From: Patescibacteria group bacterium
GTDB lineage: Bacteria > Patescibacteriota > WWE3 > UBA101185 > UBA10185
Direction of reading: 5' to 3'
NCBI GenBank assembly: GCA_049322215.1
Contig: JBMORU010000001.1
Location: 388,023-452,022 of the forward strand
Length of the DNA stretch: 64,000 bases
Position 1 is the first letter of the stretch; every line of letters starts with the position of its first letter. The notes under the pieces are model-generated. The model was given only the letters and a program-made list of their open reading frames with translations. It did not search any database and was not told the DNA's origin. Below, one piece after another: positions 4,380-20,406 of this stretch. Made by a program: the position numbers and the translations under genes.

Positions 4380-4456
4380 TGGTCGGGGTGACAGGACTTG
4401 AACCTGCGACCTCCCGGCCCCCAGCCGGACGCGCTAGCCAACTGCGCCACACCCCG
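4380..4456 (-). tRNA. tRNA-Pro (anticodon GGG)
   Basis: Reverse complement CGGGGTGTGGCGCAGTTGGCTAGCGCGTCCGGCTGGGGGCCGGGAGGTCGCAGGTTCAAGTCCTGTCACCCCGACCA folds as a cloverleaf. Acceptor stem 7 bp, anticodon stem TCCGG/CCGGG, loop CTGGGGG, GTTCAAG T-loop. CCA is encoded. Confidence 0.85.
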
Positions 4457-4969: not shown

Positions 4970-5239
4970 TTATTTGCATTTGAAAAACCACATGTCGTGG
5001 GGCTTACCTACTGCGTCTTTGGGGGCTTTAGCCTGGCCATTTACGTGCTCGTGAAGAAATACATGTGGATGCGCATCTTTTCTTACTACTTCGATGTTTG
5101 GAGGAATTTGCCCGTAAAATACTCCCGATGCTTTGGCTAATGCTGTATTAAGCTTAGTTCCAGCATTAACTGCTTGGTCAACACGCAACCAAAACTTGCT
5201 GTTGTTTCCGTGAAAGACAACAATTTTTGAATTTACCAT
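4970..5239 (-). CDS. hypothetical small protein
   Basis: Strong SD (AAGGAGAG, 5-nt spacer) on the minus strand. G+C moderately elevated. No motif recognised. Confidence 0.5.
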   Translation of the reverse strand: MVNSKIVVFHGNNSKFWLRVDQAVNAGTKLNTALAKASGVFYGQIPPNIEVVRKDAHPHVFLHEHVNGQAKAPKDAVGKPHDMWFFKCK

Positions 5240-5298: not shown

Positions 5299-5937
5299 TC
5301 AACTTTGGAAGATTAGCTTAAACAAGGGTCGTTGTTGCCCATACGCAAGTTTTTTACCCCAAGAAGATTCGACTTTGGACAATTCTTTTTTGTTTAATTC
5401 ATCAATTTGCTTAAGCCTAAAATTTACTTTTTCAAATTCAGGTACAATTTGTTCTAATATTTGTTCTTTATTCAAGTGTTCAAGGTTTAATCTTTCAAAT
5501 TCTGTGGGTTCTGCTTCGTTTGTGTATCCAAAAATTATTTCTAAGGTGCCTCTTGGCTTAAGTAAGTTTTTAATAAAATTTAACTGAGTTTCGTTAGGTT
5601 TTGCTACAGCTTGTAATAAACTACCCCAGGGTAAATTTATAGTTACTGTATCTGCTATATTTTCAAGTTCTTCAGGTAAGTTTTCTAAGCTTGCTAAAAC
5701 AAACATAACATTTTGCACTTTGCTTCTTACTGCTTTTTTTGAATATTCTTGCAATTGTTTTTCATTTGGGTCTATACCTATATAAAGACTATTTTTGTTA
5801 GCTATAGCATTTTTGTACACAAATCTGCCGTTGCCTGTACCCAAATCAATGTGCGTTTTTTGGTACTTTCTTAACGTTTCTCTAAAATTTTCAGGTTTTT
5901 CTTCTATTAGTTTGTTTCCTTTTACTAGTTTAATCAC
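5299..5937 (-). CDS. 16S rRNA (adenine1408-N1)-methyltransferase homologue, Kam/NpmA family (aminoglycoside-resistance-type MTase)
   Basis: Blocks matching NpmA/KamB as I recall them: HIDLGTGNGRFVYKNAIANKNSLYIGIDP, NVMFVLASLENLPEELENIADTVTINLPWGSLLQAVAKPN, and C-terminal SSWGKKLAYGQQRPLF. This includes the two catalytic Trp positions (PWG and SxW). Length 212 aa matches the family. Confidence 0.75.
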   Translation of the reverse strand: MIKLVKGNKLIEEKPENFRETLRKYQKTHIDLGTGNGRFVYKNAIANKNSLYIGIDPNEKQLQEYSKKAVRSKVQNVMFVLASLENLPEELENIADTVTINLPWGSLLQAVAKPNETQLNFIKNLLKPRGTLEIIFGYTNEAEPTEFERLNLEHLNKEQILEQIVPEFEKVNFRLKQIDELNKKELSKVESSWGKKLAYGQQRPLFKLIFQS

Positions 5938-5965
5938 TATAGTATGTTAAATTAATACCGTACTT

Positions 5966-6796
5966 ATGGAATTATCGCACACAAAACCTGAAATAATAGC
6001 AATTTGGCAACCATTTGGTTTTTCTACTCACATTATTACTAAAAAGGTTTCTGAGTTATTACAAACACCCACCTCACATACGGGAACCTTAGATCCCATG
6101 GCTGAAGGTGTAATAGTTGTTCTTACTGGAGAAAACAGGCATAAAAAGTATGAGTATGCCTCTTGGCTAAAAACTTACGAATTCAACCTAGTTTTGGGGG
6201 TTTCTACCGATAGTTATGATGGATTAGGTTTGATGACTTCTAACTTTATAAAACCTAATTTAACCGAAAATCATATAAATTTAGCACTTGTACAAATAAA
6301 ATCTCAAAAACCATATATACAAACAATACCTCCTTATTCTGCAATTAAGGTTAATGGTAAACCTTTGCATTGGTATGCCCGCAGCAATATGCTTGCTGAA
6401 GTTACGCTTCCAACTCGCTCTGGTGAGATTTACGAGTTGTCTTTGGTTAGCCTAAAAGAGGTGAATCTTGAAAGTGCCCTAAAGCTTATAATAAATCGAA
6501 CTAATCTTGTGACGGGGAATTTACGTCAGCCTGTGGTTTTAGCTCAGTGGGAAAAATTTTTAAAAGACGTTGGGAACCTTTCTACATATGAGCTTGTTTT
6601 GAGGGTCAAGTTAACTAAGGGTCTATATGTTCGCTCGTTGAGTCAGGATATTTGCAAACAACTAGATTGTACCGGCTTTGTCTCTAGTATATCTAGAATT
6701 GATAATGGTCTCTACAATAAAAGCAATTGCGTAACCTTAGAGCAATTATTTGGTTCAAATTATAATAGAGATCAAAAGTTTGATTCAATAACGTAA
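5966..6796 (+). CDS. truB: tRNA pseudouridine(55) synthase
   Basis: TruB catalytic motif HTGTLDPMAEGVIVV. Length fits. Confidence 0.8.
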   Translation: MELSHTKPEIIAIWQPFGFSTHIITKKVSELLQTPTSHTGTLDPMAEGVIVVLTGENRHKKYEYASWLKTYEFNLVLGVSTDSYDGLGLMTSNFIKPNLTENHINLALVQIKSQKPYIQTIPPYSAIKVNGKPLHWYARSNMLAEVTLPTRSGEIYELSLVSLKEVNLESALKLIINRTNLVTGNLRQPVVLAQWEKFLKDVGNLSTYELVLRVKLTKGLYVRSLSQDICKQLDCTGFVSSISRIDNGLYNKSNCVTLEQLFGSNYNRDQKFDSIT

Positions 6797-6907
6797 TTTA
6801 GTTCGTCATTTAGGAATCAGGTTTTATTTAACAGCTATAGTACTTGAACTTATTGGCATACCAAACTAAACTGATTGGGCTTAATACTTAATTTTAGGAG
6901 TAATTAA

Positions 6908-7267
6908 ATGACAGAAGAAATGATTATTAAAAGGCTAAAAATAATTGACGATTTGAGCCAAGAACTAAATTCACTTAAAGAAACATTTGAAGGAATGTTA
7001 GAAGATGACCCTCAATATCAGGATTTTCAGGAGGAAGAAAACAAAATAAAAGAAGAGCGTAAAGAAAAAAAAGACAAAATAATGGCAAATAGTGCTTACA
7101 AAGACGTTAACGAGCAACTCAAAGAAAAAAGACAAGATATAAAAGAAAACAAGGAAGCATTGGCTCAAGAATTAGTAGAATACTATAAAGAGACAGGCTC
7201 TTTAGAGTTTACTGATCAATATGGTGAAACTAAAAGATTAAAATTCTCGGTTCGGCTGATTAATTAG
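6908..7267 (+). CDS. hypothetical coiled-coil protein
   Basis: AGGAG SD. Highly charged K/E-rich helical sequence. Confidence 0.45.
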   Translation: MTEEMIIKRLKIIDDLSQELNSLKETFEGMLEDDPQYQDFQEEENKIKEERKEKKDKIMANSAYKDVNEQLKEKRQDIKENKEALAQELVEYYKETGSLEFTDQYGETKRLKFSVRLIN

Positions 7268-7431
7268 TAAGATTCGATAAAGTTTTGTATTTATGTTATC
7301 ATCGCAGCGATATGTCAATTAAGAAAAAGAAAAAAGAATCACAAAAGAATAAAAGTGTTAGACGTAGTAAGAAGAAAACAAAAAGAGTTTGTTAATATTT
7401 TATTCGTTTAGCTCTTTAAACTTGCTGTCCA

Positions 7432-7926
7432 GTGAAATTTAAATTTCCTAGCAAATATAAAATATACGTACTCATTTTACTGTTATTTTTAGCTTACTTA
7501 TTTCCTAGCTTAACGTTTACAGTAGATAATACCTCTGAATTTGTTGTTTCTCGCGTAATAGACGGGGATACAGTTGAATTATCTAACGGTCAAAAAGTAC
7601 GTTATATAGGAATTGATACCCCTGAAAGTGTTAAACCGGGCAGCCCCGTAGAATGTTATGCTCTTGAAGCTAAAGCAAAAAATTCTGAGCTGGTTTTAAA
7701 TAAACATGTAGTTTTAGAAAGGGATGTAAATGAAGCGGACAAGTATGGTAGGTTACTACGCTATGTTTGGGTAGATGGCTTACTAATTAATGAAATTCTG
7801 ATAAAAGAGGGTTTTGCCCATGCGGTTTCTTACCCACCTGACATAAAGTATCAAGAGCAGCTTCGTTTAGCAGAAAGAGAAGCACGTGATTTAAAAAAAG
7901 GTATTTGGGGGGCTAATTGTGACTAA
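7432..7926 (+). CDS. secreted thermonuclease (staphylococcal-nuclease-like)
   Basis: Signal/TM anchor, then SNase-like motifs VIDGDTVEL...YIGIDTPE and RLLRYVWVDG. Confidence 0.75.
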   Translation: MKFKFPSKYKIYVLILLLFLAYLFPSLTFTVDNTSEFVVSRVIDGDTVELSNGQKVRYIGIDTPESVKPGSPVECYALEAKAKNSELVLNKHVVLERDVNEADKYGRLLRYVWVDGLLINEILIKEGFAHAVSYPPDIKYQEQLRLAEREARDLKKGIWGANCD

Positions 7927-7974
7927 AGATCAGCTACTCAACTATTAGATGAACAGCTGATCCTTAACTAAAGG

Positions 7975-8334
7975 CTAAAAAGATTTAGGTTTTCGTTTTA
8001 GCTCAGTGATGAATGCCCTCAACAAAACATGCCAGCGCCATAATGTTAAGCTTTGAGTCAATTCTTCCTCAGCGTCAAAAAATTCTATGTACGCAGATTC
8101 TCTTAAAATATCTTTTGACACAATAGCTATGTCTATGAAAGCAACTGCTTTGTTAAAGTTTTCCCCTCTAAAAACCCTAACTGCTAATACGCTTTTTTGC
8201 TCATCTTTTGGTAGTAGCAATAGTGTTACTGTGTATATTTCATTTCCCGGCCAAAACTTTAAGTGCTGAAACCATTTTCGTTGTGTTTCTATCACTCTAG
8301 TTGTTATAACCTGTATTTCATTTGTTTCGTGCAT
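7975..8334 (-). CDS. hypothetical protein
   Basis: Strong SD AAGGAGAG 6 nt upstream of the ATG on the minus strand. No motif recognised. Confidence 0.5.
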   Translation of the reverse strand: MHETNEIQVITTRVIETQRKWFQHLKFWPGNEIYTVTLLLLPKDEQKSVLAVRVFRGENFNKAVAFIDIAIVSKDILRESAYIEFFDAEEELTQSLTLWRWHVLLRAFITELKRKPKSF

Positions 8335-8445
8335 ATATCTCTCCTTGTAGCGGTTTTGCTTTGCATTATAGGATAAATAACGAGGCTATCCAAACTTCAT
8401 CACTCAAACTAAGCATTGTGTTTGTATTTGTAATATAATTGGCTT

Positions 8446-10167
8446 ATGGAATTAGCGATTGTAGCTTTTTTGGCAGGTGTTTTAACTGTAGTAACACCTT
8501 GTGTGCTCCCAATATTGCCTATAATTTTAGGGGGTACATTAGCTGACTCTCAAGACAAAAAACGCCCATTTATAATTGTGGCCTCTTTAGGGTTATCTGT
8601 ACTGGCTTTTAGCTTATTGCTTAAGTCCTCTACCTTATTAATAAATATTGACCCCTCTTTTTGGAAGTACTTTTCTGGAGGAATAATTTTAATTTTTGGT
8701 ATTTTTACTCTCTTTCCTAATGTTTGGGAGAAAGTTTCTGAAAAAATAGGATTAGGGGGGTTGGGAAATCTTTTGCAACAGTCCCAAGCCAAAGGCGGAC
8801 GTTTAGGTCAGGTTTTAGTGGGTATTTCTCTTGGGCCGGTCTTTTCTAGTTGTAGTCCCACATATGCTGTTATTTTGGCTGTAGTTTTACCCCAAAATTT
8901 TTCGTCTGGTTTACTTAACCTTATTATTTATGTAGTGGGTTTATCTTTAGCCTTACTGACAATTGCTATTTTTGGACAAGGTGCAATTGCAAAGCTTAAA
9001 TGGGCGGCAAATCCCACAGGCTGGTTTAGAAAAGGTTTGGGCGTTTTGTTTGTAGTTGTTGGTGTGGCTATTATAACCGGTTATGAAAAAAAGTTAGAAA
9101 TAGCCTTATTAGATAACGGGTTGTATGATTTTACTCGATTTGACCAGAAGTTGATTGAGCAGGTAGATATGGGAGAAACGAAAAATAAGCCTGCAATATC
9201 CTCAACTGATAAACTTCATCTTGCTGTAGAAGAGCCTTATCCTGCTCCAGAAATTAGAAATATTGCTCACTGGATTAATTCCGATGGTGAAAGCTTGGCA
9301 CAATTAAAGGGAAAAGTAGTTTTAATAGATTTTTGGACTTACAGTTGTATAAATTGTATTCGTACCCTTCCCTATTTGAAGGCGTGGCATGAAAAGTATT
9401 CTGACGATGGGCTAGTAATAATAGGCTTGCATGCGCCTGAATTTGCTTTTGAGCAAAAAGTAGAAAATGTAGAGATGGCTGTAAAAGATTATGAAATCAC
9501 TTACCCTGTTGGGTTAGACAACGACTTTTCAACATGGCGCGCCTATGACAATAGGTACTGGCCCGCCAAATATTTTATAGATAAAAAAGGTAACTTAAGA
9601 CATTATCACTTTGGTGAAGGTGATTATAAAGAAAGTGAAGAAGTACTTCAGTTTTTGTTATCAGAAGATGGTAGTGCTGTGGATGATTCTATTTCTACCA
9701 ATACACAAGATACTCCTCCTACCATTTCAGGACAGTCTCCTGAAACATATTTAGGCTATGAGCGCGCCAAAAATTTTAAAAACGCTGTAAGATTCAAGAG
9801 AGATGTTCCTTTTACTTACGTTCTCAATGTGGACTTAAAGCCAAATGAATGGTCTTTTGAAGGTACATGGGAAGTAAAAAATGAAAAAAGTGTAGTTATT
9901 TCTGATTCAGCAACTCTTGTTTATAACTTTTCAGCTAAAGATGTTTATTTGGTAATGGGTTCTGAGACTTCTGGTGAGGTTAAAGTTGAGGTTTCGGGTT
10001 ATTCTAACGCCTATGGAGACTCTGTTTCTGATGAGGGTATAGTGCAGGTAAACATGTTTAAGTTGTATCATCTTGTGAGCTTGCCTTCCTTTGATAACAA
10101 TGTGACTATGACTCTCACATTTCCAAAAGGTGTAGAAGTACACGCATTCACTTTTGGGTCAAAATAG
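8446..10167 (+). CDS. thiol:disulfide interchange fusion protein: CcdA/DsbD-type membrane domain plus periplasmic thioredoxin-like (TlpA/ResA-like) domain plus C-terminal domain
   Basis: N-terminal TM domain with the paired Cys of CcdA (CVLPILP... and SCSP). Thioredoxin CxxC WTYSCINCIRTLP. Leaderless-type promoter: TATAAT at 8434-8439, 6 nt before the ATG. Confidence 0.7.
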   Translation: MELAIVAFLAGVLTVVTPCVLPILPIILGGTLADSQDKKRPFIIVASLGLSVLAFSLLLKSSTLLINIDPSFWKYFSGGIILIFGIFTLFPNVWEKVSEKIGLGGLGNLLQQSQAKGGRLGQVLVGISLGPVFSSCSPTYAVILAVVLPQNFSSGLLNLIIYVVGLSLALLTIAIFGQGAIAKLKWAANPTGWFRKGLGVLFVVVGVAIITGYEKKLEIALLDNGLYDFTRFDQKLIEQVDMGETKNKPAISSTDKLHLAVEEPYPAPEIRNIAHWINSDGESLAQLKGKVVLIDFWTYSCINCIRTLPYLKAWHEKYSDDGLVIIGLHAPEFAFEQKVENVEMAVKDYEITYPVGLDNDFSTWRAYDNRYWPAKYFIDKKGNLRHYHFGEGDYKESEEVLQFLLSEDGSAVDDSISTNTQDTPPTISGQSPETYLGYERAKNFKNAVRFKRDVPFTYVLNVDLKPNEWSFEGTWEVKNEKSVVISDSATLVYNFSAKDVYLVMGSETSGEVKVEVSGYSNAYGDSVSDEGIVQVNMFKLYHLVSLPSFDNNVTMTLTFPKGVEVHAFTFGSK

Positions 10168-10180
10168 CGCGGAGTTGATT

Positions 10181-11893
10181 TTACCAGCTACCTCCACCTC
10201 CACCTCCTCCAAAGCCTCCTCCTGACCCTCCGCTAAAACCACTTCCATAACCACCTGATGATCGTGTAGCCGACATTGTTTGTGCTACGCTTGTTCCAAA
10301 CGAGTCTATTGTTGAAGCAAATGCTACTGCGTTAAACGCTTGTGTTCCGGTATACCAGTCGGGGATATTTTCTACCGTTAAATCTTTAAACCTATCTGCC
10401 CAGGTTTTTGTAACTTTAAAGGCAATCGCATACGGAAGCAGTTTTTCAAACATGTACCAATTTTGTTCCTGAAACTCTAACTGTGCCTCCTGTGATGATA
10501 AAAACTTTTTAAGACCCTTTGCATGTATTGTTAGTTCAACGCCTTTTTGTGTTTTTCTAGGCATTGCACTTGCCATTAAAAGAGAAATCACTCCAAAAGG
10601 TATATTTACTGTTATAAGACTTCCCATGCCAATTGCTATCCATGTGGTTCTTACTTTATCTGGATTTTTTACGAATACCCCATTGTTGGTTGTATTGCTA
10701 TAAAGCATTTTAGTAAGTTTTTTATAGTAGGTCGCAAATTTGTATTTCAGCTCGCTTGTTTTTATTTCAGTCTTGTCTTCAAATAACTTTTCCAATAAAT
10801 ATTGCTCATGCTCAGCAAGCTTGTACTTATTCTTAGTAAGATGCAAATCGCTTTTTGTTAAAATATAGTCTTTTGTGTTTATTAAACCCAACATTTTGTT
10901 GTTTTCTTCTTTTATTTTTAAAAACCCTCTAATTGCCAAATCTACTATTGTTGCTGAAATGTCGCTTTGATCCACTTCTTCGTCGATTATTAACCCAACC
11001 TCTGCTGGAGTTAGTCTTACATTGTTGTCTTTAGGTTCATCAAAAAAAACTGGCACTGTGTCTATTGTTGGTTTAGGGTCGCGTCCATACTTAAAGTAAT
11101 AAACTAGAACGCCAATAGGAAGTATGACGTACCAAACTAATGTCATTAAAAGGAATAAGGGGTTCACCTCATCAGTATTTACAGGATTATACTTAGTAGA
11201 CACTTTAGGTGTAAGTGAAATTAAATTTTGGTCAAAGCTTAAAACTGTAGAAATACCTTCTCCCTGAGTTAACGGCTCAGCTGTTTCAAAGTAATATTCG
11301 TTAAACTGTTTTTGTGCGCGTAACGTACAATTTGAATCTACAGAACCTAATTTTCCTGTTATACATTTGGTTTTTATTTTTGCAACATCGATTTCTGCAG
11401 GTAAGTGAAAGGTAGCAGTTGCCTTAATAATTGGAACTTTCCATTCATTGCCTGTTACATTCCAATAAATCTCATCGTGATCACTAAACCTTTCTATGGC
11501 GCCTTCCACTTCATAAGAAATTACATATGTATGTACGCCTGAAATTGTTTTATTTGGGTCACCAATTTTTAAGGATACATTTTGTCCTTTTTTTGACTCG
11601 GTATAGCTATAGGGAGTGTTTTTTTCGTTAACAATACTTAATACTTTAAGTGGCGTTTCAAAGTAGTCTCCATCTTCGTTTTCGAATTTTACTTTTATAT
11701 CGCGAAAAATGCCGTGCCTTTGATTTGTTCCAAAGTCATATGTTATTTCTTCTACAACAGTAACTACCCCAGTATTGCTAACAAACAAATTGGCATTAAA
11801 AAGTAATATCTGTTCAGATTCTTCTGCATAGGCGTTTTTGACTAATCCAAAGCTTAAGAGTAGCAATATCAAAAAAACTAGTGTTTTTTTCAT
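10181..11893 (-). CDS. DUF2207-family membrane protein with Gly-rich C-terminal tail
   Basis: Signal peptide, large extracytoplasmic domain, TM helices, and C-terminal GGSGGGFGGGGGGGSW tail. The architecture is typical of DUF2207. Confidence 0.55.
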   Translation of the reverse strand: MKKTLVFLILLLLSFGLVKNAYAEESEQILLFNANLFVSNTGVVTVVEEITYDFGTNQRHGIFRDIKVKFENEDGDYFETPLKVLSIVNEKNTPYSYTESKKGQNVSLKIGDPNKTISGVHTYVISYEVEGAIERFSDHDEIYWNVTGNEWKVPIIKATATFHLPAEIDVAKIKTKCITGKLGSVDSNCTLRAQKQFNEYYFETAEPLTQGEGISTVLSFDQNLISLTPKVSTKYNPVNTDEVNPLFLLMTLVWYVILPIGVLVYYFKYGRDPKPTIDTVPVFFDEPKDNNVRLTPAEVGLIIDEEVDQSDISATIVDLAIRGFLKIKEENNKMLGLINTKDYILTKSDLHLTKNKYKLAEHEQYLLEKLFEDKTEIKTSELKYKFATYYKKLTKMLYSNTTNNGVFVKNPDKVRTTWIAIGMGSLITVNIPFGVISLLMASAMPRKTQKGVELTIHAKGLKKFLSSQEAQLEFQEQNWYMFEKLLPYAIAFKVTKTWADRFKDLTVENIPDWYTGTQAFNAVAFASTIDSFGTSVAQTMSATRSSGGYGSGFSGGSGGGFGGGGGGGSW

Positions 11894-11914
11894 AAATAGA
11901 TAATCACTAAACTA

Positions 11915-12232
11915 CTAAAGTTCTATGTCATTAATTGCAGCTTCTGCCTCTGACTCTGCCTCAATTGATAACATTAAGTCATCTAATTCTTTTACTGTTT
12001 CATTATCTACTTCTTCAGGTGTGCTTGATGATTCCTCTAATTCAGTGAATTCCATTTCAGTTTCCTCTTCCATAACATTTTCTTCTGTTACGGTTTTGGT
12101 TGAAGGCATTAAAGTTCCTTTTAGATCAGATTTTTTAGCATTAAGAATAACTGCTCCGCCCACTGCCAAAGCTAAAACTATTACTAGCATAATAATTCCT
12201 GATATTCCTTTTTGGTTACTAATATTTTTCAT
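11915..12232 (-). CDS. small single-pass membrane protein with acidic C-terminal tail
   Basis: GAGGAGG SD. One TM helix, then an E/D-rich tail. The start codon overlaps the stop of the upstream gene (TAATG). Confidence 0.55.
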   Translation of the reverse strand: MKNISNQKGISGIIMLVIVLALAVGGAVILNAKKSDLKGTLMPSTKTVTEENVMEEETEMEFTELEESSSTPEEVDNETVKELDDLMLSIEAESEAEAAINDIEL

Positions 12233-12852
12233 TATTCCTCCTCATTTAAATTTGCAGCCTGTTCTCTAATATCTTTAATGTGCTCCCTTACGGTGTCACG
12301 GTAGTACTCCATTATTTCACGTCTTTTATTTCGTGCTTCGTGCAACTTATCTTTTGCCTCTAGCACTAAATCTTTGTAAGCCCCGTCTTCGTTTCCACAA
12401 TCTAAAGCTTGAGTATCGGTTAATATATTTATAAATTCAGTGTATAGCACTGTATATTCGTCTACCAAACCTTCTAATACTACTATGTCATTTTCTAAAT
12501 CTGTTGTATCAAAACCCTTATCTTGAAGCTTAGTTACTATTTCGTTTAGTCTGTTTGTGAAATTCTCGTAATTTTTTAGGTGCCTATCTTTATTATCTTC
12601 AAAGGCGCTTATTCTGTTTGATATTCTTTGTGTGGCCAAGTCGCATCGGTTTTGAACTCTTTGCTGTACTTTGTCTTGAGCCTGTTCTTTTAATTCCATT
12701 TTTTCTTCACGAATTGAATTTTTTTCTTCTGTGGTTCTTTTCGGCATTAAAGAATTAGAGTTTTGACCTTGGGCGTTACTGTATCCCGGAAGCAAAAGTA
12801 AACTAAATACAACGGTAAGCGTTATGAGAGTTAGTTTTTTTAAAATAGACAT
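12232..12852 (-). CDS. secreted coiled-coil protein (signal peptide)
   Basis: N-terminal signal peptide ...LLLPGYSNAQG. Charged helical remainder. First gene of a 3-gene minus-strand operon. Confidence 0.5.
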   Translation of the reverse strand: MSILKKLTLITLTVVFSLLLLPGYSNAQGQNSNSLMPKRTTEEKNSIREEKMELKEQAQDKVQQRVQNRCDLATQRISNRISAFEDNKDRHLKNYENFTNRLNEIVTKLQDKGFDTTDLENDIVVLEGLVDEYTVLYTEFINILTDTQALDCGNEDGAYKDLVLEAKDKLHEARNKRREIMEYYRDTVREHIKDIREQAANLNEEE

Positions 12853-12947
12853 AGTAAAAATATAGGCTAAATTCGTGTTTATATCAATATTTGATATAAT
12901 TCGGCCAATTACAAATACACTTGTTCCGGTAAAAAAGGAGAAAAACT

Positions 12948-13502
12948 ATGCTTAATAAGCTAAATGATCGAGTGACAAGTTTGAAACCTTTGGTACATTC
13001 GGTAGTGAAGTTTGCAAAAAAAGTGAAAAGTATCACATTGCAGCTATTGAAAATTAGAGACGTACGCATTGTTTTAGCCTGTATTGCTGGCTATTTTGCG
13101 CTGTTTTTCATTATGCTGAACATCTCTCTAAACGCTTTTAGAACATACGTTTTTTTGAGTGATGTTGTTTATTGGATGTTTCACTTTGCTGCCTTTGCCT
13201 TAATAGAGTACACACTTAAGCACGCTAAGCTTACTCTGCTTTTTATTAGTGTGTCGGTACTAAGCTGGGCGTCTGCAGCTTTGGTTGGTATGACAATTTT
13301 CGATGCATTAGGTAGCTACTTCGCACTTCGCGCATACGGCGAATACTTACCAATTGGGACATACTTAACTCACATATTGGCTCCCTACGGTTTAATATGG
13401 AAACCATTTCATAGTGTAATCATTTTGCTTGGTCTTCCATTTGCCATTGCGCTTGTTTTGCGTTTCAAACGGGGGCACAGTTTAAAAGTTACTTTAAACT
13501 AA
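12948..13502 (+). CDS. integral membrane protein, hypothetical
   Basis: GGAG SD. About 5 predicted TM helices. Followed by a terminator-like hairpin at 13510-13546. Confidence 0.5.
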   Translation: MLNKLNDRVTSLKPLVHSVVKFAKKVKSITLQLLKIRDVRIVLACIAGYFALFFIMLNISLNAFRTYVFLSDVVYWMFHFAAFALIEYTLKHAKLTLLFISVSVLSWASAALVGMTIFDALGSYFALRAYGEYLPIGTYLTHILAPYGLIWKPFHSVIILLGLPFAIALVLRFKRGHSLKVTLN

Positions 13503-13509
13503 AACCATT

Positions 13510-13546
13510 GGGTGCGAAGTTTTTTAAACAATAAAAACTTCCACCC
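13510..13546 (+). terminator. terminator-like hairpin (GGGTGCGAAGTTTTT / AAAAACTTCCACCC)
   Basis: ~13-bp imperfect inverted repeat with a T-rich left arm. Seen directly. Confidence 0.4.
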
Positions 13547-13572
13547 ATTAACTTTGTTAGAATATTCTAGTT

Positions 13573-16164
13573 ATGTCAGATTTTGAAACCCCAATGATGG
13601 TTCAGTATAAAGAAATAAAAGATGCCTATCCTGATTGTCTTTTATTTTTTAGACTAGGTGATTTTTACGAACTTTTTTTAGATGATGCTAAGGTAGGTGC
13701 AAACGTATTAGGTATAACTTTAACATCACGATCTCGAGGAAAAGACGGCCGAATTCCAATGGCGGGAGTTCCTTATCACGCAGTAAATTCCTACTTATCT
13801 AAATTAGTTAAAGCAGGCCACAAAGTTGCTATATGTGAACAAGTTGGTGACACTAAAGGACCTGATTTAGTTAAGCGAGAAGTTGTAAGAGTTGTAACAC
13901 CCGGTACTCTTATAGACCAAAACTCCCTGGATAAATCAAAAAATAATTATGTTGCTGCACTATGTATAGCAAATAACACAATGGGGCTATCTTTTGCAGA
14001 TGTGTCTACAGGACATTTTCACTCTTTTGAAGAAACTACAAATGAAATTCAAAATGTGTTGTTAGATCACTTTTCTAAATACACACCTGCAGAAATTTTG
14101 CTAAATGATGCTACATATAATGACTCTAAAACGCTAAAGTTACTTACTGAACTTGGTATAAGCATTTACAATTATGCGTCATGGTCAAACTATTCTTCTA
14201 AACCAGAAAAACATTTGTTAACCCATTTTAACCTAACAACTTTAGCCAGCTTTGGTATGGGTAACACTCCTTTAGCCACTGAAACTGCTTCAGTTTTGCT
14301 TGGCTATTTAAAGGAAACTCAAAAGGACAAAGTTTCACATATAAATAAAATAAATTTTTCACCTGCATCTGATTATGTTGAGTTAGGAAGATCTACAATT
14401 TTTAATTTGGAATTATTTTCTACAATAAGAGAAGGAGAAAAGTATGGTTCGCTAATTGGCGTTCTAGATGAAACTCTTACCCCTATGGGAGCGCGTTTGC
14501 TACGCAAGTGGATTGCGCGCCCTTTAACAAATATTTCTTCAATTTCTGCCCGCCAAAATTCTGTGTCTGAATTTTTAGAAAATAGGCAACTAAGAAATAA
14601 CTTACTGGGTGTTTTAAAAGAAATAAATGATATAGAAAGAATTCTTTCTAAAATATCAGTAGGCTTGGGAAATGCGCGTGATTTAGTAAACCTTAAAGAT
14701 TCTTTGATCGCTGTTTTAGAAGTTAAGCAAGTTTTGAATTTAGCAAAATCTTCTTTAAATATGAAACTTAAGGGTTCTATTGATTCAAACTTACAAAAAC
14801 TGGTAGATAAGATACATATCACTATTGTTGATGAACCCCCTATAGAACTTAAGCAAGGAAATCTTATAAAACCGGGTGTTTCTTCAAAGCTGGATGATTT
14901 AAAACGAGGAATAAAAACCAGTCAGGAGTGGATATCTTCTTTAGAAGAAAAAGAAAAGGAGCGAACAGGTATTTCAACCCTAAAAGTCGGTTATAACAAG
15001 ATTTTTGGGTATTACATTGAAATAAGTAAATCTAATTTACATCTTGTACCTGAAAGCTATGTGAGGAAGCAGACTTTAGTGAGTGCGGAGCGTTTTATTA
15101 CACAACGCTTAAAAGAAGAAGAAGAACAAGTTTTAGCTGCTGAAGATAAAATTAATGATTTAGAATATGAAATTTTTTCAAGTGTTGTTGATAATGTTTT
15201 GAATGCCTTACCAGCTATACAAGTAGCTGCAGAAGCAGTAGCCGAGCTAGACTGTCTTGTAAACTTTGCTGTTTTAGCAAAAAACTATAATTATTGTAAG
15301 CCTAATATTAGTACTTCAGGAAATATAAAAATTATAAATGGGCGTCACCCAGTAGTTGAAAGGCTTTTACGTGAGGTGCCTTTTGTTCCAAATGATGTTA
15401 ATTTAAACCATGAAGACCATCAGCTAATTCTTATTACTGGACCAAATATGGCAGGTAAGTCTGTATACATAAGGCAGGTGGGTTTAATAACTCTTATGGC
15501 ACAAATGGGCAGTTTTGTTCCTGCAGATTCTGCTGAAATTTCTGTAGTAGATAAAATTTTTGTTAGAAGTGGTGCAAGTGATTTTATTACATCAGGGTTA
15601 TCTACATTTATGGTCGAAATGGTTGAAACTGCACATATTTTAAATAATTCCACAAAAAACAGTTTAATTTTACTTGATGAAATTGGTAGAGGAACCACAA
15701 CTTATGACGGGGTAAGTATTGCTTGGGCAGTTGCTGAGTATTTAGTAAAAAATCAGCAACCCTTTGCGAAAACCATGTTTGCAACTCATTACCACGAACT
15801 TCAAGATCTCGCTAAGGAAAGTTCTTTAGTTAAAAATTATCAGGTGTTGGCAAAAGAAGAATCTGGAAAACCAATATTTTTGCATAAAGTAGCTCCGGGA
15901 GGTGCTTCTCATAGTTATGGTGTGGCGGTAGCACAGCTAGCGGGAATTCCTGACGTGGTTACCACACGTGCTTTAGAAATATTAAGTACTTTACAGGGTA
16001 AAAGCTTTGAAGATTGGTTGCATGAAGATAGCATTGCAACTGATAACGTTTCCAATGAACTGACCGCAAAATTATCCTCAATAGATGTAAATACACTTAC
16101 TCCAATTGAGGCTTTGTTAAAGCTAAAAGAACTTAAAGAAAAGTTGCAAGATCAGGCGGTTTAA
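13573..16164 (+). CDS. mutS: DNA mismatch repair protein MutS
   Basis: MutS N-terminal mismatch domain (PMMVQYKEIKDAYPDCLLFFRLGDFYELF). Walker A GPNMAGKS. Length 863 aa. Confidence 0.9.
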   Translation: MSDFETPMMVQYKEIKDAYPDCLLFFRLGDFYELFLDDAKVGANVLGITLTSRSRGKDGRIPMAGVPYHAVNSYLSKLVKAGHKVAICEQVGDTKGPDLVKREVVRVVTPGTLIDQNSLDKSKNNYVAALCIANNTMGLSFADVSTGHFHSFEETTNEIQNVLLDHFSKYTPAEILLNDATYNDSKTLKLLTELGISIYNYASWSNYSSKPEKHLLTHFNLTTLASFGMGNTPLATETASVLLGYLKETQKDKVSHINKINFSPASDYVELGRSTIFNLELFSTIREGEKYGSLIGVLDETLTPMGARLLRKWIARPLTNISSISARQNSVSEFLENRQLRNNLLGVLKEINDIERILSKISVGLGNARDLVNLKDSLIAVLEVKQVLNLAKSSLNMKLKGSIDSNLQKLVDKIHITIVDEPPIELKQGNLIKPGVSSKLDDLKRGIKTSQEWISSLEEKEKERTGISTLKVGYNKIFGYYIEISKSNLHLVPESYVRKQTLVSAERFITQRLKEEEEQVLAAEDKINDLEYEIFSSVVDNVLNALPAIQVAAEAVAELDCLVNFAVLAKNYNYCKPNISTSGNIKIINGRHPVVERLLREVPFVPNDVNLNHEDHQLILITGPNMAGKSVYIRQVGLITLMAQMGSFVPADSAEISVVDKIFVRSGASDFITSGLSTFMVEMVETAHILNNSTKNSLILLDEIGRGTTTYDGVSIAWAVAEYLVKNQQPFAKTMFATHYHELQDLAKESSLVKNYQVLAKEESGKPIFLHKVAPGGASHSYGVAVAQLAGIPDVVTTRALEILSTLQGKSFEDWLHEDSIATDNVSNELTAKLSSIDVNTLTPIEALLKLKELKEKLQDQAV

Positions 16165-16187
16165 TAACTGTAAATTCGCTCGTGTAA

Positions 16188-16193
16188 TATAAT
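16188..16193 (+). promoter_or_regulatory. -10 hexamer TATAAT placed 6 nt upstream of the mutL ATG (leaderless-type promoter)
   Basis: cgtgtaaTATAATactcatATG. No SD. Confidence 0.4.
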
Positions 16194-16199
16194 ACTCAT

Positions 16200-17861
16200 A
16201 TGGGAAACATTAGAATTTTGCCCAAAAAGGTAGCTTCGAAAATAGCCGCTGGAGAAGTAATTCAACGCCCTGCTGACGTTGTTAAGGAATTGATAGAAAA
16301 TTCCTTAGATGCTGAAGCTTCTAATATACATTTAAAAATATCAGGAGCTGGTTTAGATATTATACAAGTAAGAGACAATGGTGTAGGAATGTCGGTTGAT
16401 GACTTGGAAAAATGTTTTTTGCCTCATGCTACTAGTAAAATCTTTCATGAAGATGATATTTATTCCATTTCTTCTATGGGGTTTCGAGGAGAAGCTTTAA
16501 GTAGTATTGCAGCTATTAGCCGTACAACAATTCAAAGCAAACCAAATTCTTCAACTGAAGGCAACTTGTTAGAACTAACCGGTGGAATGTTAGAGGGTAT
16601 TTCTCCGTGTGGTATGCCTAATGGTACTATTGTAACCGTAGAAAATTTGTTTTTTAATGTTCCCGTTAGAAAAAAGTTTTTAAAATCAACTCAAGTAGAG
16701 TTTGCCGAAATTCTATCTGTTGTAACTTCTTTGGCTTTATCTTTTCCTGAAGTGGGGTTTACGATTGAGAAAGATGAAAAAGTTGTATTATCGTTGCTAA
16801 AAAATTCAGCACTTGATGACAGAATTAGAGACATTTACGGAGAAGATTTATTTGCTCAATTATTGCCTGTAACTTACGAGGGTTCTCATGTAACACTGCA
16901 TGGTTACATATCAAGACCTCAAGTAACTACCACTAGCTCAAGCAAACAAAGCTTGATTATTAACAACAGAGTAGTTTCAGAAAAGGTTTTGCTTTCTGCA
17001 ATTAGAAACGCCTACGGAACTTTATTACAACCAAGAGTATACCCGGCGTTTTTACTGCATCTTAAGTTTCCTCCAGAGCTAGTTGATGTTAATGTTCATC
17101 CGCGTAAACAAGAAGTGAAGTTTATTAATCCAAAACTTGTCACCGAATCAGTCTCAAGTGCAATTAATAAAGCGTTGCAAGTAAATGACTTAACCTACAT
17201 TAAATCTGGTTTTAGTTTTACTAATGAATTTTTGCTAAAAGATGCCGATTACGTTGCAAATTTAAGAAAACATTCTTCTTCTATTGTCTTGGAAGAAATA
17301 ATACAGGTTCATAATCAGTACTTAATTTCAGAATCAGCTAGGGGCATATACTTAATTGATCAACACGCTGCCCACGAACGCATTATTTTTGAGCAATTGT
17401 TTGAAAAATTTAAGACTACTAACAAATCTGAAGCTATTAAGCTTGATTCCCCTCATATTTTTAACTTATCAAATGTAGAGGCTCTTTTATTAAAAGAACA
17501 CTTGTATGTTTTTGAGAGTATTGGTTTTCGCATTCAAGAATTTGGTTCAAATGCATTTAGAGTCACACAGGTTCCTGTTTTTTATCAAGATAGAAACATT
17601 ACAAGTATTTTGTCAGAAATGCTTGATGATTTAGTTAATGAAGGGTTTGTTTCAGATATAGATATTAAGTCTGAGAGAGCACTTTCATATTTGGCTTGCC
17701 GCAGTGCTATAAAAACGGGCGAAGTGCTAAACCTTGAAACCCGAAAAACCCTCTTAGAACAACTAGCAGAAACTAAAACAAAATATACATGTCCACACGG
17801 TAGACCAGTAAAAATCGAAATTTCTTTAAAAGACTTGGATAAATTATTCAAACGCACATAG
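16200..17861 (+). CDS. mutL: DNA mismatch repair protein MutL
   Basis: GHKL ATPase N-terminus (IAAGEVIQRPADVVKELIENSLDA). Length 553 aa. Confidence 0.9.
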   Translation: MGNIRILPKKVASKIAAGEVIQRPADVVKELIENSLDAEASNIHLKISGAGLDIIQVRDNGVGMSVDDLEKCFLPHATSKIFHEDDIYSISSMGFRGEALSSIAAISRTTIQSKPNSSTEGNLLELTGGMLEGISPCGMPNGTIVTVENLFFNVPVRKKFLKSTQVEFAEILSVVTSLALSFPEVGFTIEKDEKVVLSLLKNSALDDRIRDIYGEDLFAQLLPVTYEGSHVTLHGYISRPQVTTTSSSKQSLIINNRVVSEKVLLSAIRNAYGTLLQPRVYPAFLLHLKFPPELVDVNVHPRKQEVKFINPKLVTESVSSAINKALQVNDLTYIKSGFSFTNEFLLKDADYVANLRKHSSSIVLEEIIQVHNQYLISESARGIYLIDQHAAHERIIFEQLFEKFKTTNKSEAIKLDSPHIFNLSNVEALLLKEHLYVFESIGFRIQEFGSNAFRVTQVPVFYQDRNITSILSEMLDDLVNEGFVSDIDIKSERALSYLACRSAIKTGEVLNLETRKTLLEQLAETKTKYTCPHGRPVKIEISLKDLDKLFKRT

Positions 17862-17913
17862 TGCCAAAACTGCTTAAACACTTCATCCGTACTGTATAAT
17901 TGCCCTGTTTACT

Positions 17914-18996
17914 ATGAAAAGTATAACCATAAAAAACAAAGCATATGATTTTCCCATATTTCTACCAGACGCAACTAGAGCGGTAACTAAGAGTATTGAT
18001 TCAAACGATATGGTGTTTGCCGAGGTAAGGGGTTGCGTGGTTAATACCTACCACTTAATGAGCGAACCCGGTGTTTCGGTTTTAAAACACTTTGGAGGAA
18101 TAAAAGGATTTATGAAGTTCGACGGGTTAGTTGTATCAGACTCTGGAGGTTGGCAGGTTTTTTCTTTAATTCATAGAAATAAAAAAGCGGGTACTATAAC
18201 AGACAAAGGTGTTACTTTTTCTTTAGGTGGGGCCAAGAAAAAACTTTTTACCCCGGAAAAATCAATCCAAGTGCAAATGGATATAGGTTCTGATATTGTA
18301 ATTTGTTTAGATGACTTCAGTCCCCCCGAAGGTGATGATATCGCTATTGAAGAAAGTGTTGTGCGAACTACTAAATGGGCAAAGCGTTGTAGAGAAGAAT
18401 TCGATCGTCAGTGTGAAGTGCGAAAGCTTGATGATTCTTCAAGACCTCACTTATTTGCCGTAGTTCAAGGAGCACGCAGTAAACCCATGCGAGACAAAAG
18501 TGCTACAGAATTGCGTGAAATTGGTTTTGACGGCTATGGTTTTGGAGGTTACCTAATTGACGAAGAAGGCAACTTAGATTTAGATATGATGGAATATCTT
18601 GCAAGTATTATTCCCAATGATTTACCTAAATTTGCATTAGGAACCGGTTCTCCACATGAAATTGCTATGTGCTATCAACTGGGTTGGGATATATTTGACT
18701 GTACTTTGCCTACGAGAGATGCTCGTCATCAAAGACTTTACGTTTTTACTGAAGAACCAAATTCCGTTGATGCCCTGCTTAAAGAAGAAACTTATGGCTA
18801 TGTACAAATAAAACGGGAAAAGTATAGACGCGATGAACGTCCTATAAGTGATTTTTGTGATTGCTATACCTGCAAAAACTATTCAAGAGCTTATCTTCAA
18901 CATTTATTTAGCATAAAAGATACTTCTGCTTTTAGATTAGCTACAATTCACAATTTATGGACTTATAACAAGCTAATAAGTTTACTATCAAAATGA
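17914..18996 (+). CDS. tgt: queuine/guanine tRNA-ribosyltransferase (Tgt family)
   Basis: FPIFLPDATRAVTK, NTYHL, GGWQVFSL, and the zinc motif CDCYTCKNYSRAYLQHL. Confidence 0.8.
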   Translation: MKSITIKNKAYDFPIFLPDATRAVTKSIDSNDMVFAEVRGCVVNTYHLMSEPGVSVLKHFGGIKGFMKFDGLVVSDSGGWQVFSLIHRNKKAGTITDKGVTFSLGGAKKKLFTPEKSIQVQMDIGSDIVICLDDFSPPEGDDIAIEESVVRTTKWAKRCREEFDRQCEVRKLDDSSRPHLFAVVQGARSKPMRDKSATELREIGFDGYGFGGYLIDEEGNLDLDMMEYLASIIPNDLPKFALGTGSPHEIAMCYQLGWDIFDCTLPTRDARHQRLYVFTEEPNSVDALLKEETYGYVQIKREKYRRDERPISDFCDCYTCKNYSRAYLQHLFSIKDTSAFRLATIHNLWTYNKLISLLSK

Positions 18997-19787
18997 GTTT
19001 AGAAAACGAGATTTTAAAAGCACAGCAGTCAAAAAAGTATTCTCACATTTCAGAAACAACCATTAAAAATATATTTGAAACTGAATTTCAAAATATAAAA
19101 AACGAAAAACGTGCGTTAGAAAGTGCAAAGAAAAAATTACACAGAGTGGTTGCCGAGTACTTAGGGGATCTTAATTATGATCAAGCTTTTTTAGAGTTGA
19201 AAACCGCTTATGAAACAAAAAAAGTGGAAGAAATCAAAAATGTGTGCATACAGCTTATGAACGCACATTTCACAACACGAGAGCGGTTACCTATTTTAGA
19301 AGATTTTTACAAAAAAATTTTCGAAACTACCGGAGAGGTTAATTCTATTTTAGACTTAGCCTGCGGAATTAATCCTCTTGCTTTGCCTTGGATGCCTCAG
19401 GTTAAACATTACCATGCTTACGATATAAATATACCTCGAGTTGATTTTATAAATAAGTTTTTAAACTTAAACGAACTGCCTGAAGATGCACAGGCTAAAG
19501 ATGTTTTAGCGAATATTCCATCTGAGCAAGGCGATGTGGCATTACTACTAAAAGAAATACACAGAATGTTTGAACGAAACAAGGCACTAACAATAAAGCT
19601 TTTAGAGGAAGTGCAAGTTAAATGGTTAGTAGTTTCTATACCTGTTTCTAATATGAGAAAAGAATGGGCAATGCCCAAAAAGTATGAAGCTGCCGTTTTA
19701 GCTGTAATTGAAGAGCACAAATGGCCTTATTTTGTTTTAGAATTTGATACAGAAAAGGTATTTTTGATTAATAAAGAAGTGTATTAA
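18993..19787 (+). CDS. 16S rRNA (guanine1405-N7)-methyltransferase homologue, FmrO/ArmA/Rmt family (aminoglycoside-resistance-type MTase)
   Basis: Blocks matching ArmA/Rmt as I recall them: QSKKYSHIS.., KKKLHRVVAEY, TTRERLPILEDFY, SAM motif ILDLACGINPLALPW, YHAYDIN. Length 264 aa. The ATG overlaps the tgt stop (ATGA). Confidence 0.7.
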   Translation: MSLENEILKAQQSKKYSHISETTIKNIFETEFQNIKNEKRALESAKKKLHRVVAEYLGDLNYDQAFLELKTAYETKKVEEIKNVCIQLMNAHFTTRERLPILEDFYKKIFETTGEVNSILDLACGINPLALPWMPQVKHYHAYDINIPRVDFINKFLNLNELPEDAQAKDVLANIPSEQGDVALLLKEIHRMFERNKALTIKLLEEVQVKWLVVSIPVSNMRKEWAMPKKYEAAVLAVIEEHKWPYFVLEFDTEKVFLINKEVY

Positions 19788-19869
19788 CAATGTCGTTAAC
19801 CTATAGTATAATTAGAGAGTATCACAATATAATTTAATCAGTTCACAATTCATAAGGAGTAGATAGATC

Positions 19870-20406
19870 ATGAATCAGCCAATGTATATGCGTATGGCCT
19901 ACATTTTGGACGAAAACGGCGATACCTGTGGGTTTGTTAAACATGCACACAGTAGCGCATCCATTTGCCGTTTGGATTTTTCCTGGGTAAACTCGATGAC
20001 GCAAGATTTGTACAAGGCTTTGGTTGCGGTATATGGAATCTACTATCATGACAATGAGGCTATGACTCAAGGTCATGTTGTAATCCCGCTTTTTGATGGG
20101 GAGATCCGCAACAAAAAAGGCTTTGTTATTTCCCAGGCAAATGCGATTCGACGTCGTTTAGAAGCATCTGCAATGGATGAAGTGGTTCGTCGTGCTATGA
20201 CTGCATTATGCTTTACAGAGGACAGAACTGCTGTTTTGACCTCTATCGGACGTTTGTTGCAGACTTTGCACAAAAACCCTGCAGCTTTCGCCCAGGCCAT
20301 AGAAGAAGTTGACAGTACTGTACCTGAAGATTTTGCCCTGCTCGTCGGCGCCCTTTCGTACCCTGATATGGCACATGTTGTTGGAGCAAAAATTACCTCC
20401 ATTTAG
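19870..20406 (+). CDS. hypothetical protein, G+C-anomalous
   Basis: AAGGAG SD with TATAGTATAAT upstream. Coding region visibly G+C-richer (GCC/CTG/CGT codons) than the flanks. No motif recognised. Confidence 0.5.
   Translation: MNQPMYMRMAYILDENGDTCGFVKHAHSSASICRLDFSWVNSMTQDLYKALVAVYGIYYHDNEAMTQGHVVIPLFDGEIRNKKGFVISQANAIRRRLEASAMDEVVRRAMTALCFTEDRTAVLTSIGRLLQTLHKNPAAFAQAIEEVDSTVPEDFALLVGALSYPDMAHVVGAKITSI

Follow-up and report, generated by a model that had tools for sequence, protein, structure and literature searches.

The 16S rRNA methyltransferases of aminoglycoside resistance belong to two classes, one acting on A1408 (the NpmA/Kam family) and the other on G1405 (the FmrO/Kgm/Rmt family). 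Both classes can be carried by a single genome. For example, KgmB (G1405 class) and KamB (A1408 class) coexist in Streptoalloteichus tenebrarius, an aminoglycoside producer in which they serve self-resistance (PMC2760815). Here we analysed 64,000 nucleotides of contig JBMORU010000001.1 from a WWE3-type Patescibacteria group bacterium (hereafter the window), in which an NpmA-like gene and an FmrO-like gene were separated by 13,055 bp. An earlier note on this DNA, whose limits at 5299 and 19787 are the 3' end of the minus-strand open reading frame (ORF) and the stop of the plus-strand ORF, had stated that such genes normally occur one at a time, either in producers or on plasmids; the S. tenebrarius pair already contradicts the first part of this statement. 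The window is similar to S. tenebrarius in combining the two classes, but its genes have housekeeping RNA-modification and repair genes as neighbours and no biosynthetic context.

Both families had also been seen in the Candidate Phyla Radiation (CPR). A recent preprint surveyed npmA-like and grm-like genes of CPR genomes (Razzouk et al., 2026; bioRxiv 10.64898/2026.07.13.738296). The genes tested there came from two different genomes, one WWE3 and one Parcubacteria, and the text consulted did not discuss co-occurrence of the two. Furthermore, PDB entry 7JLZ, titled 'A1408 methyltransferase from an uncultured bacterium (UncKam)' by its depositors, was 100% identical over 209 residues to the NpmA-like gene (1517..2143 of locus L014) of a Patescibacteria metagenome-assembled genome (MAG; CAZEAL010000168.1), indicating that the 'uncultured bacterium' is a CPR organism. 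UncKam was 76% identical to a WWE3 copy (L010) and about 45% identical (BLAST) to the window protein, and the structural literature thus already contains a member of the NpmA-like clade. The co-occurrence of both classes and the presence of both families in CPR are therefore already known, and the degree of novelty claimed in the earlier note was too high.

We propose that the two enzymes are resident and intrinsic to the organism and methylate helix 44 (h44) of the 16S rRNA in its own 30S subunits, with aminoglycoside insensitivity as a by-product. Our rough probability for this reading is 0.6, and it is higher for the part that concerns the NpmA-like gene. Both enzymes would use S-adenosylmethionine (SAM), bind to the mature 30S subunit and modify the upper end of h44 in the decoding centre. 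The modifications would be constitutively encoded and would be made on the cell's own ribosomes, and insensitivity would follow from them.

Family membership, fold and conserved residues

Both proteins fell into the families to which they had been assigned before, and Pfam, structure searches and model superpositions agreed on it. The NpmA-like protein matched Pfam NpmA (PF24675) with 193.6 bits (gathering threshold 60) over residues 4-204 of 212, and the FmrO-like protein matched Pfam FmrO (PF07091) with 127.3 bits (gathering threshold 27) over residues 13-255 of 264. Among solved structures, the NpmA-like protein matched A1408 methyltransferases exclusively (7JLZ at 1e-57 with HMMER, NpmA at 3e-42, and also NpmB, Kmr, CacKam and KamB), and the FmrO-like protein matched G1405 methyltransferases exclusively (Sgm at 3e-25, RmtC at 2e-22, and also RmtB, RmtF and ArmA). 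The AlphaFold model of the NpmA-like protein (predicted local distance difference test, pLDDT, 94.0) superposed on NpmA (3MTE) with a Foldseek E value of 7e-24 and a template modeling score (TM) of 0.92, and its best 19 Foldseek matches were all A1408 methyltransferases. The FmrO-like model (pLDDT 90.8) superposed on Sgm (3LCV) with E = 2.5e-15 and TM 0.83-0.84, and its best 16 matches were all G1405 methyltransferases. Identities to the characterised enzymes were low, at 34-37% between the NpmA-like protein and NpmA (structural alignments) and 26-30% between the FmrO-like protein and Sgm. The window thus adds a distant new member to each of two families that were already known.

Like NpmA, KamB, CacKam, Kmr, NpmB and WarA, the NpmA-like protein has a single-domain class I fold with the SAM-binding acids, the two tryptophans, the R207 equivalent and the basic linker. 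The SAM-binding acids D30, D55 and E88 of NpmA (D36, D61 and E94 of CacKam) correspond to D31, D56 and E85 in the window protein; D31 was invariant and D56 and E85 were kept in at least 90% of 25 homologues. The A1408-sandwiching tryptophans W107 and W197 of NpmA correspond to W104 and W193, both invariant in the same homologues, and NpmA E146 and K199 correspond to E143 and K195. NpmA R207 lies in the beta6/7 linker, and its role was reportedly described by Dunkle et al. in 2014; its counterpart R203 was invariant. The basic beta2/3 linker was represented by K67, K68 and R71 (K66, K67, K70 and K71 in NpmA), although it was four residues shorter and NpmA K71 had no counterpart. The roles of the SAM-binding acids and of the two target-stacking tryptophans were established for NpmA and CacKam (PMC4705659), the tryptophan sandwich around the flipped A1408 is also described in PMC10054953, and docking of the beta2/3 linker on h24/h27/h45 is described in 10.1101/712810. 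The kind of modification expected of the NpmA-like enzyme, m1A1408, is nearly certain; the enzyme would most likely flip out A1408, stack the base between W104 and W193 and methylate its N1.

The FmrO-like protein has the two-domain architecture of the producer enzymes Sgm, KgmB and GrmA and of the acquired enzymes ArmA and RmtA-H, in which a Rossmann domain lies C-terminal to the helical N1/N2 domains. The h45-docking residues K20, Y21, R50 and H54 of RmtC correspond to K15, Y16, K46 and H50, of which K15, Y16 and H50 were invariant in 22 FmrO homologues. The SAM-binding residues R111, D160 and D188 (window R98, D144 and D170) and the G1405-positioning residues Y60 and K204 (window Y56 and K187) were invariant or nearly so, and RmtC D134 corresponds to D121. 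The roles of the docking, SAM-binding and base-positioning residues are known from RmtC (10.1101/712810; PMC10054953). Because all three sets were kept, the FmrO-like enzyme very probably docks on the 30S subunit as RmtC does, with its N-terminal domain on h45/h44. It would then distort h44 and methylate N7 of G1405 or of a neighbouring guanine, and N7-methylguanine at or near 1405 is its likely product.

Chromosomal setting and the truB neighbourhood

The features of the locus are given in Table 1.

Table 1. Position and annotation of the two methyltransferase genes and their neighbouring features in the window
Feature	Position	Strand	Remarks
RDD-family membrane protein gene	4523..4936	+	Pfam RDD, 84 bits; near the NpmA-like gene in 8/33 related loci
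NpmA/Kam-family 16S rRNA methyltransferase gene	5299..5937	-	212 aa, GTG start; predicted m1A1408 enzyme
Divergent intergenic spacer (28 bp), NpmA-like gene / truB	5938..5965	.	from coordinates and sequence
truB (tRNA pseudouridine-55 synthase)	5966..6796	+	Pfam TruB_N, 83 bits
h119a, uncharacterised 119-aa protein	6908..7267	+	most constant Patescibacteria neighbour of the NpmA-like gene
mutS	13573..16164	+	Pfam; 35 nt before mutL
mutL	16200..17861	+	Pfam; 52 nt before tgt
tgt (tRNA-guanine transglycosylase)	17914..18996	+	Pfam TGT, 305.7 bits
FmrO/Kgm/Rmt-family 16S rRNA methyltransferase gene	18993..19787	+	264 aa; predicted N7-guanine methyltransferase, G1405 or nearby; 'F2' clade
Best promoter-like site of the region, TTAACA-17-TATAAT	19784..19812	+	consensus match only; ends the tgt/FmrO-like unit and starts that of h178
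h178, 178-aa ORFan	19870..20406	+	directly 3' of the FmrO-like gene; atypical composition

The G+C content (GC) of the window was uniform at 0.32-0.385. The NpmA-like gene (GC 0.310; GC at third codon positions, GC3, 0.230) and the FmrO-like gene (GC 0.327; GC3 0.272) were typical of their neighbours. We annotated with Pfam the 10 kb on either side and, elsewhere in the window, every ORF that was 140 aa or longer. Only housekeeping genes were found there, such as those for NUDIX proteins, glycosyltransferases, mutS, mutL, tgt, ADP-forming acetyl-CoA synthetase, 2-oxoacid:ferredoxin oxidoreductase, exonuclease VII, enolase, iPGM, NrdD/G, UppS and BipA. This annotation detected no transposase, integrase or phage gene in the 64 kb, and no gene for aminoglycoside biosynthesis, drug modification or efflux near the pair. 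The NpmA-like protein is recorded in NCBI under 'MAG: Patescibacteria group bacterium' on the 1,112,869-bp source contig, which encodes MFZ5424567.1 and MFZ5424580.1, and the identical protein was also encoded on a 176-kb Logan contig. In a search of a plasmid collection, the NpmA-like protein had no match and the best match of the FmrO-like protein was RmtB, with 27-28% identity. The earlier note was thus right in placing the homologues in the ordinary chromosome of a low-GC organism, away from mobile-element signatures.

The starts of the NpmA-like gene and truB are only 28 bp apart, so the promoters of both genes must be inside the neighbouring coding sequences or farther off. The best NCBIfam match of the window's truB was TruB (TIGR00431), with 100 bits under a cutoff of 151. 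A homologue-alignment scan with one genome per GTDB species showed that at least 294 species encode an NpmA-like relative; this number is a minimum, since even the motif variant of the window protein (DLGTGNG) would escape the search pattern. For FmrO-like proteins the counts exceeded 432 metagenome stretches and 991 protein clusters. Both families are thus widespread in uncultured environmental bacteria and not restricted to producers and plasmids. For a comparison of neighbourhoods we took the 40 Patescibacteria loci that matched best (33-50% identity; labels WWE3, 'Saccharibacteria' or Patescibacteria), 39 of which had enough upstream sequence for counting. In 19 of these 39 loci truB was head-to-head with the NpmA-like gene within 400 nt, a homologue of h119a was located no more than 1.5 kb upstream in 26, and one or both of them were present upstream in 30. 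Neither truB nor h119a was found beside the NpmA-like genes of other phyla (0/37 loci, from Acidobacteriota, Melainabacteria, Dehalococcoidia, Planctomycetota and others). We also looked for a neighbourhood shared by the non-CPR genes and rejected it, none being conserved. This synteny indicates that the NpmA-like gene is vertically inherited and lineage-conserved in WWE3-type Patescibacteria. It differs in this from the NpmA-type enzymes encoded on plasmids or in biosynthesis clusters, since the window gene is chromosomal, conserved in its lineage and divergently paired with truB.

The h119a protein is highly charged, and at some loci its gene directly adjoins the NpmA-like gene with no truB between them. 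It had no significant Pfam match, and it may be a functional partner of the NpmA-like gene. The ORF at 4970..5239, downstream of the NpmA-like gene, was considered as another conserved partner and was rejected, having 0 homologues in the related loci. A tRNA-Pro(GGG) gene is located at 4380..4456 on the minus strand, about 850 bp from the NpmA-like gene, and tRNA genes are often integration sites of islands. A genomic island linked to this tRNA was rejected, as the synteny of RDD, truB and h119a runs across 4380..4456 in the relatives.

The distance between the two methyltransferase genes can be understood from the relatives. In L033 and L039 the order NpmA-like gene - truB - h119a ... mutS - mutL - tgt was kept within 10 kb, and in L017, L022 and L037 tgt was about 5 kb from the NpmA-like gene. 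The truB and tgt blocks are hence ancestral neighbours in this lineage, so that a gene attached to tgt comes to lie no more than about 15 kb from the NpmA-like gene. Each gene would have its own place in a housekeeping RNA-modification neighbourhood, and the 13-kb spacing would come from the old adjacency of truB and mutS-mutL-tgt. No FmrO gene was found within 10 kb of the other NpmA-like genes (0/80 loci), and no NpmA-like gene within 6 kb of the FmrO loci (0/86), the flanks in both searches being shorter than the 13-kb spacing of the window. The functional pairing implied in the earlier note thus found no support, as the pair was not conserved beyond the species level and no linkage was seen at either set of loci. 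The pair is not a resistance island, it is not mobile, and it shows no sign of being a functional cluster.

It is also conceivable that the same chemistry was selected for antibiotic self-protection, possibly in an episymbiont that has aminoglycoside producers as neighbours or hosts and for which the two enzymes would give complementary spectra. m7G1405 blocks all 4,6-deoxystreptamine (DOS) drugs and no 4,5-DOS drugs, and the protection by m1A1408 is broader but variable (PMC12391297; PMC2760815). KgmB and KamB are found together in a producer, resistance is conferred by every member of the two families characterised so far, and a streptomycin-tolerant CPR co-culture was mentioned in PMC8651080. 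However, the genes around the pair are for tRNA and rRNA modification and for repair instead of drug biosynthesis, modification or efflux, and the NpmA-like gene is conserved throughout its lineage whatever the habitat. The constraint on the FmrO-like gene is relaxed in a sister strain, and the preprint saw no shift in resistance and argued for poor uptake by CPR cells (see below). We thus regard self-protection as unlikely.

The tgt linkage of the FmrO-like gene and a cluster of FmrO paralogues

The stop codon of tgt overlaps the start of the FmrO-like gene by 4 nt (ATGA), and no promoter-like site was found between the two genes. Given this overlap, the short gaps along mutS and mutL, and a first good promoter-like site only after its stop codon, the FmrO-like gene is probably co-transcribed with tgt. 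Such translational coupling to tgt sets it apart from Sgm and the Rmt enzymes. The window Tgt had 56-64% identity to the Tgt of WWE3-type relatives and 41-45% to Anaerolineae-type Tgt, indicating that tgt is native to the lineage. The ORFan h178 had a GC of 0.451 and a GC3 of 0.43, as compared to a GC of 0.31-0.38 in its neighbours, and it is preceded by a near-consensus promoter-like site of its own and by a ribosome-binding site, AAGGAG. No Pfam match was obtained for h178, and its sole homologue among 5.8 billion proteins was that of the sister strain. It probably does not belong to the methyltransferase system, yet it is relevant to the history of the FmrO-like gene.

Lineage conservation, which the earlier note proposed to check in relatives, holds for the NpmA-like gene, which is syntenic across the WWE3 type, and fails for the FmrO-like gene. 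No FmrO gene was present downstream of tgt in L017, L022 and L037, the only three relatives in which this region was visible, and other genes were located there. Otherwise, the order mutL-tgt-FmrO-h178 was found only in a sister strain from another sample (Logan ERR15087771), with 96-100% nucleotide identity. In the sister strain, the FmrO-like gene (1482..2276 of L083) and the NpmA-like gene (2901..3539 of L170) were in matching local order, and the sample also contained the truB/NpmA-like block.

Apart from the sister strain, the proteins closest to the FmrO-like protein were 36-45% identical to it, and the few that were named came from Anaerolineae or Ardenticatenaceae. Their contigs had a GC of 0.39-0.71, most of them above 0.5. 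On these Anaerolineae-type contigs we found a recurrent cluster, rsmI - tgt - F1 - F2 - rsmF-like and/or rsmE, in which F1 and F2 are tandem FmrO paralogues, and the closest relatives of the window protein were F2, the second of the two. Among loci with enough flanking sequence, F1 was directly 5' of F2 in 38 of 56, tgt was directly 5' of F1 in 25 of 29, and rsmF or rsmE was directly 3' of F2 in 47 of 54; rsmI was often adjacent. NCBIfam comparisons supported RsmI (221 versus 168) and the RsmE family, and RsmF was the best match for the m5C enzyme. The cluster was seen at L084 (5054..11174), L086, L088 and L090-L169, and several of its gene junctions overlap. F1 looks canonical, with an Sgm-like loop, and F2 is divergent.

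RsmI (Cm1402), RsmF (m5C1407) and RsmE (m3U1498) belong to other protein families than the FmrO enzymes but have their targets in the same small set of h44 nucleotides, and the Anaerolineae-type FmrO paralogues are embedded between their genes. None of the three genes was present in the window. In E. coli, interference of resistance methylases with RsmI and RsmF has been documented (PMC3923132), which makes it noteworthy that FmrO genes are co-operonic with rsmI, rsmF and rsmE in Anaerolineae-type genomes. Uncharacterised G1405-family homologues of Chloroflexi had been noted previously (10.1101/712810); in the literature that we searched, which was incomplete, we came across no account of F1 and F2 in tandem or of their linkage to tgt. 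Two low-GC FmrO loci, L163 and L101, were considered as CPR loci and rejected. Their Tgt was 57-60% identical to the Anaerolineae type and 41-44% to that of the window, and these loci thus do not show that the cluster exists in other CPR.

These relationships raise the question of whether the FmrO-like gene came by horizontal transfer from a donor of the Chloroflexota type, in which case it would be a sporadic accessory and its co-occurrence with the NpmA-like gene accidental. Such an origin is consistent with its absence 3' of tgt in the family-level relatives L017, L022 and L037, with the distance and the mostly higher GC of its Anaerolineae-named relatives, with the foreign-composition ORFan h178 directly downstream, and with its raised divergence between the sister strains. 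On the other hand, its own GC and GC3 are host-like, and in a neighbour-joining (NJ) tree the window protein was on a long basal branch instead of being nested among the Anaerolineae-type sequences. The tgt that it overlaps is the native one, and this linkage would hardly be produced by random insertion, because F1 is located between tgt and F2 in the donors. No mobile genes were found, and any transfer would have to be ancient. We consider a horizontal origin possible but doubtful. The gene appears to be long-resident and kept only in one species-level lineage, and a relic is more likely than an old transfer.

In our preferred reading of an intrinsic 30S methyltransferase, the FmrO-like gene would retain the tgt linkage of a decoding-centre cluster of the type rsmI-tgt-F1-F2-rsmF/rsmE. 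The pairing of the NpmA-like gene with truB in WWE3 and this cluster in Anaerolineae-type genomes also led us to a wider proposal, which we put forward only tentatively. The WWE3-type lineage may use m1A1408 as a housekeeping modification, one of its species may add an F2-type methylation of h44, and both resistance families may descend from housekeeping enzymes of uncultured Terrabacteria-type lineages. If this were true, the native ribosome would be doubly methylated at the aminoglycoside site and the F2 modification would be an undescribed modification of 16S rRNA.

Evidence against intrinsic modification and the functional state of the genes

Several observations weigh against the reading of both genes as active 30S methyltransferase genes with the expected targets. 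Both proteins scored under the curated NCBIfam cutoffs: the NpmA-like protein reached 146 of 470 for NpmA, 120 of 460 for NpmB, 125 of 305 for WarA and 76 of 350 for KamB, and the FmrO-like protein reached 166.6 as compared to the equivalog cutoff of 250 for Rmt_gen (NF000466). For this reason we regard them as family members and not as equivalogs of the known resistance genes. Motif I of the NpmA-like protein is DLGTGNG instead of the family's DLGTGDG, with N36 (codon 5830..5832) at a position where Asp was kept in at least 90% of the homologues; the sister strain also has Asn. In the FmrO-like protein, the equivalent of RmtC K236 is S219, a position that is K/R in F1 and Sgm and variable in F2, and the loop equivalent to RmtC 237-246 (SNMRKE-WAM) is one residue shorter and divergent. 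The FmrO-like gene was also less constrained than its neighbours in the sister comparison, as described below. A 16S rRNA in which positions 1405 and 1408 could be checked was not encoded in the window, where Rfam detected two tRNAs only, and a regular expression for the decoding-site sequence had no match in any of the retrieved loci. Finally, one npmA-like and one grm-like CPR gene left the aminoglycoside minimum inhibitory concentration (MIC) of E. coli unchanged, according to the preprint (10.64898/2026.07.13.738296). Unchanged MIC argues against activity on the E. coli 30S subunit, or against expression of the constructs.

The loop bears on the target of the FmrO-like enzyme. In RmtC, K236 touches the G1405 base, R241 touches U1495 and M245 touches A1408, and M245 may be Leu in true RmtC homologues (PMC10054953). 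RmtC also contacts A1408 through T207, N248 and R211. The window loop has the basic residues R222 and K223, its M227 aligns with M245, and it has no GxR motif; model confidence is low there (block pLDDT 64). F1 and Sgm share the loop K/R-S-L-G-x-R-x-K-G-M, and the F2 loop is one residue shorter and ends in L or V. We calculated the NJ distance tree from 262 columns with 100 bootstraps, and its support was moderate: the window protein grouped with F2 in 62 of 100 replicates and with F1 in 1 of 100, and F1 grouped with Sgm in 94 of 100. Rmt_gen scores followed the same pattern, being lowest for the window protein and F2 (181-186) as compared to 214-223 for F1. Together with the frequent tandem of F1 and F2, which implies non-redundant roles, these data are consistent with an FmrO-like gene that was neofunctionalised like F2. 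Its product would then act on another guanine of the decoding centre or on another RNA, and 1405 and 1408 would not be doubly modified. However, the docking residues (K20, Y21, R50 and H54 in RmtC) as well as Y60 and K204 are kept in both F2 and the window protein, so that both probably dock on the 30S subunit in the same way. At the position of M245, where Leu may occur in true RmtC homologues, F2 has L or V and the window protein has M227, and the bootstrap value that joins the window protein to F2 is only moderate. The earlier note had offered two alternatives, double modification of h44 and neofunctionalised paralogues; a target other than G1405 is a real possibility for the FmrO-like gene, to which we give limited credence.

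The sister strain allowed us to estimate the constraint on each gene. The FmrO-like gene was the most diverged gene between the two strains, with 94.7% amino-acid identity and 14 amino-acid changes. There were 15 non-synonymous and 16 synonymous differences, and the ratio of non-synonymous to synonymous substitution rates (dN/dS) was 0.22 on these small numbers, as compared to 0.06 for tgt. In the sister copy, CTG replaces the ATG start codon and L replaces P132, a residue that is invariant in the family. By contrast, the NpmA-like copies of the two strains differed by one residue, with zero synonymous differences. This comparison suggests that the FmrO-like gene is under weak constraint.

Alternatively, one or both genes could be inactive relics heading for loss in a reduced genome. 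The changes in the sister FmrO-like copy, the loss of the FmrO-like gene in relatives, D36N in motif I of the NpmA-like protein and the lack of an E. coli phenotype in the preprint would all agree with inactivity. Nevertheless, both reading frames were intact at full family length in the window, every other invariant residue was present, and the models were confident and complete. The NpmA-like gene is nearly unchanged between the strains and conserved across about 40 species, and a dN/dS of 0.22 still means purifying selection. Inactivity of either gene in this strain is therefore unlikely in our opinion, and expression of both genes is to be expected under the preferred reading.

The authors of the preprint argued that fermentative CPR cells take up aminoglycosides poorly, and they favoured a role in DNA restriction-modification (10.64898/2026.07.13.738296). 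The latter view is not supported by the synteny found here, which is with truB, tgt and rsmI/F/E. For the window genes we rejected a restriction-modification role, as no restriction or hsd genes were found nearby and the conserved residues are those that contact rRNA. In the Methods of the preprint, the assembly accessions and product annotations of the two constructs seem to be crossed, 'npmA' being annotated as a G1405-N7 and 'grm' as an A1408-N1 methyltransferase. Because of this apparent crossing, the negative MIC result is harder to use.

As a finding on resistance genes, our results are modest, since they concern distant, non-mobile homologues and the one published test of CPR homologues was negative. 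Their value is in indicating that uncultured lineages probably use 'resistance' methylations for housekeeping. If the two enzymes do act on the cell's own ribosome, the decoding centre would be intrinsically aminoglycoside-proof, and for m1A1408 the same would hold for an entire lineage within the CPR. It would bear on the enrichment and cultivation of CPR organisms and on the origin of the clinical NpmA and Rmt enzymes. The more useful lead lies beyond the window, in the tandem G1405-class paralogues of the Anaerolineae-type methyltransferase cluster, which point to a housekeeping origin of the G1405 resistance family and to an uncharacterised F2 paralogue.

Elsewhere in the window, a gene for protein-L-isoaspartate O-methyltransferase (PCMT, 211 bits; 55168..55812, plus strand) had a weak second match to the rRNA adenine dimethylase family (RrnaAD) with 34.6 bits, which probably reflects shared Rossmann-fold similarity.

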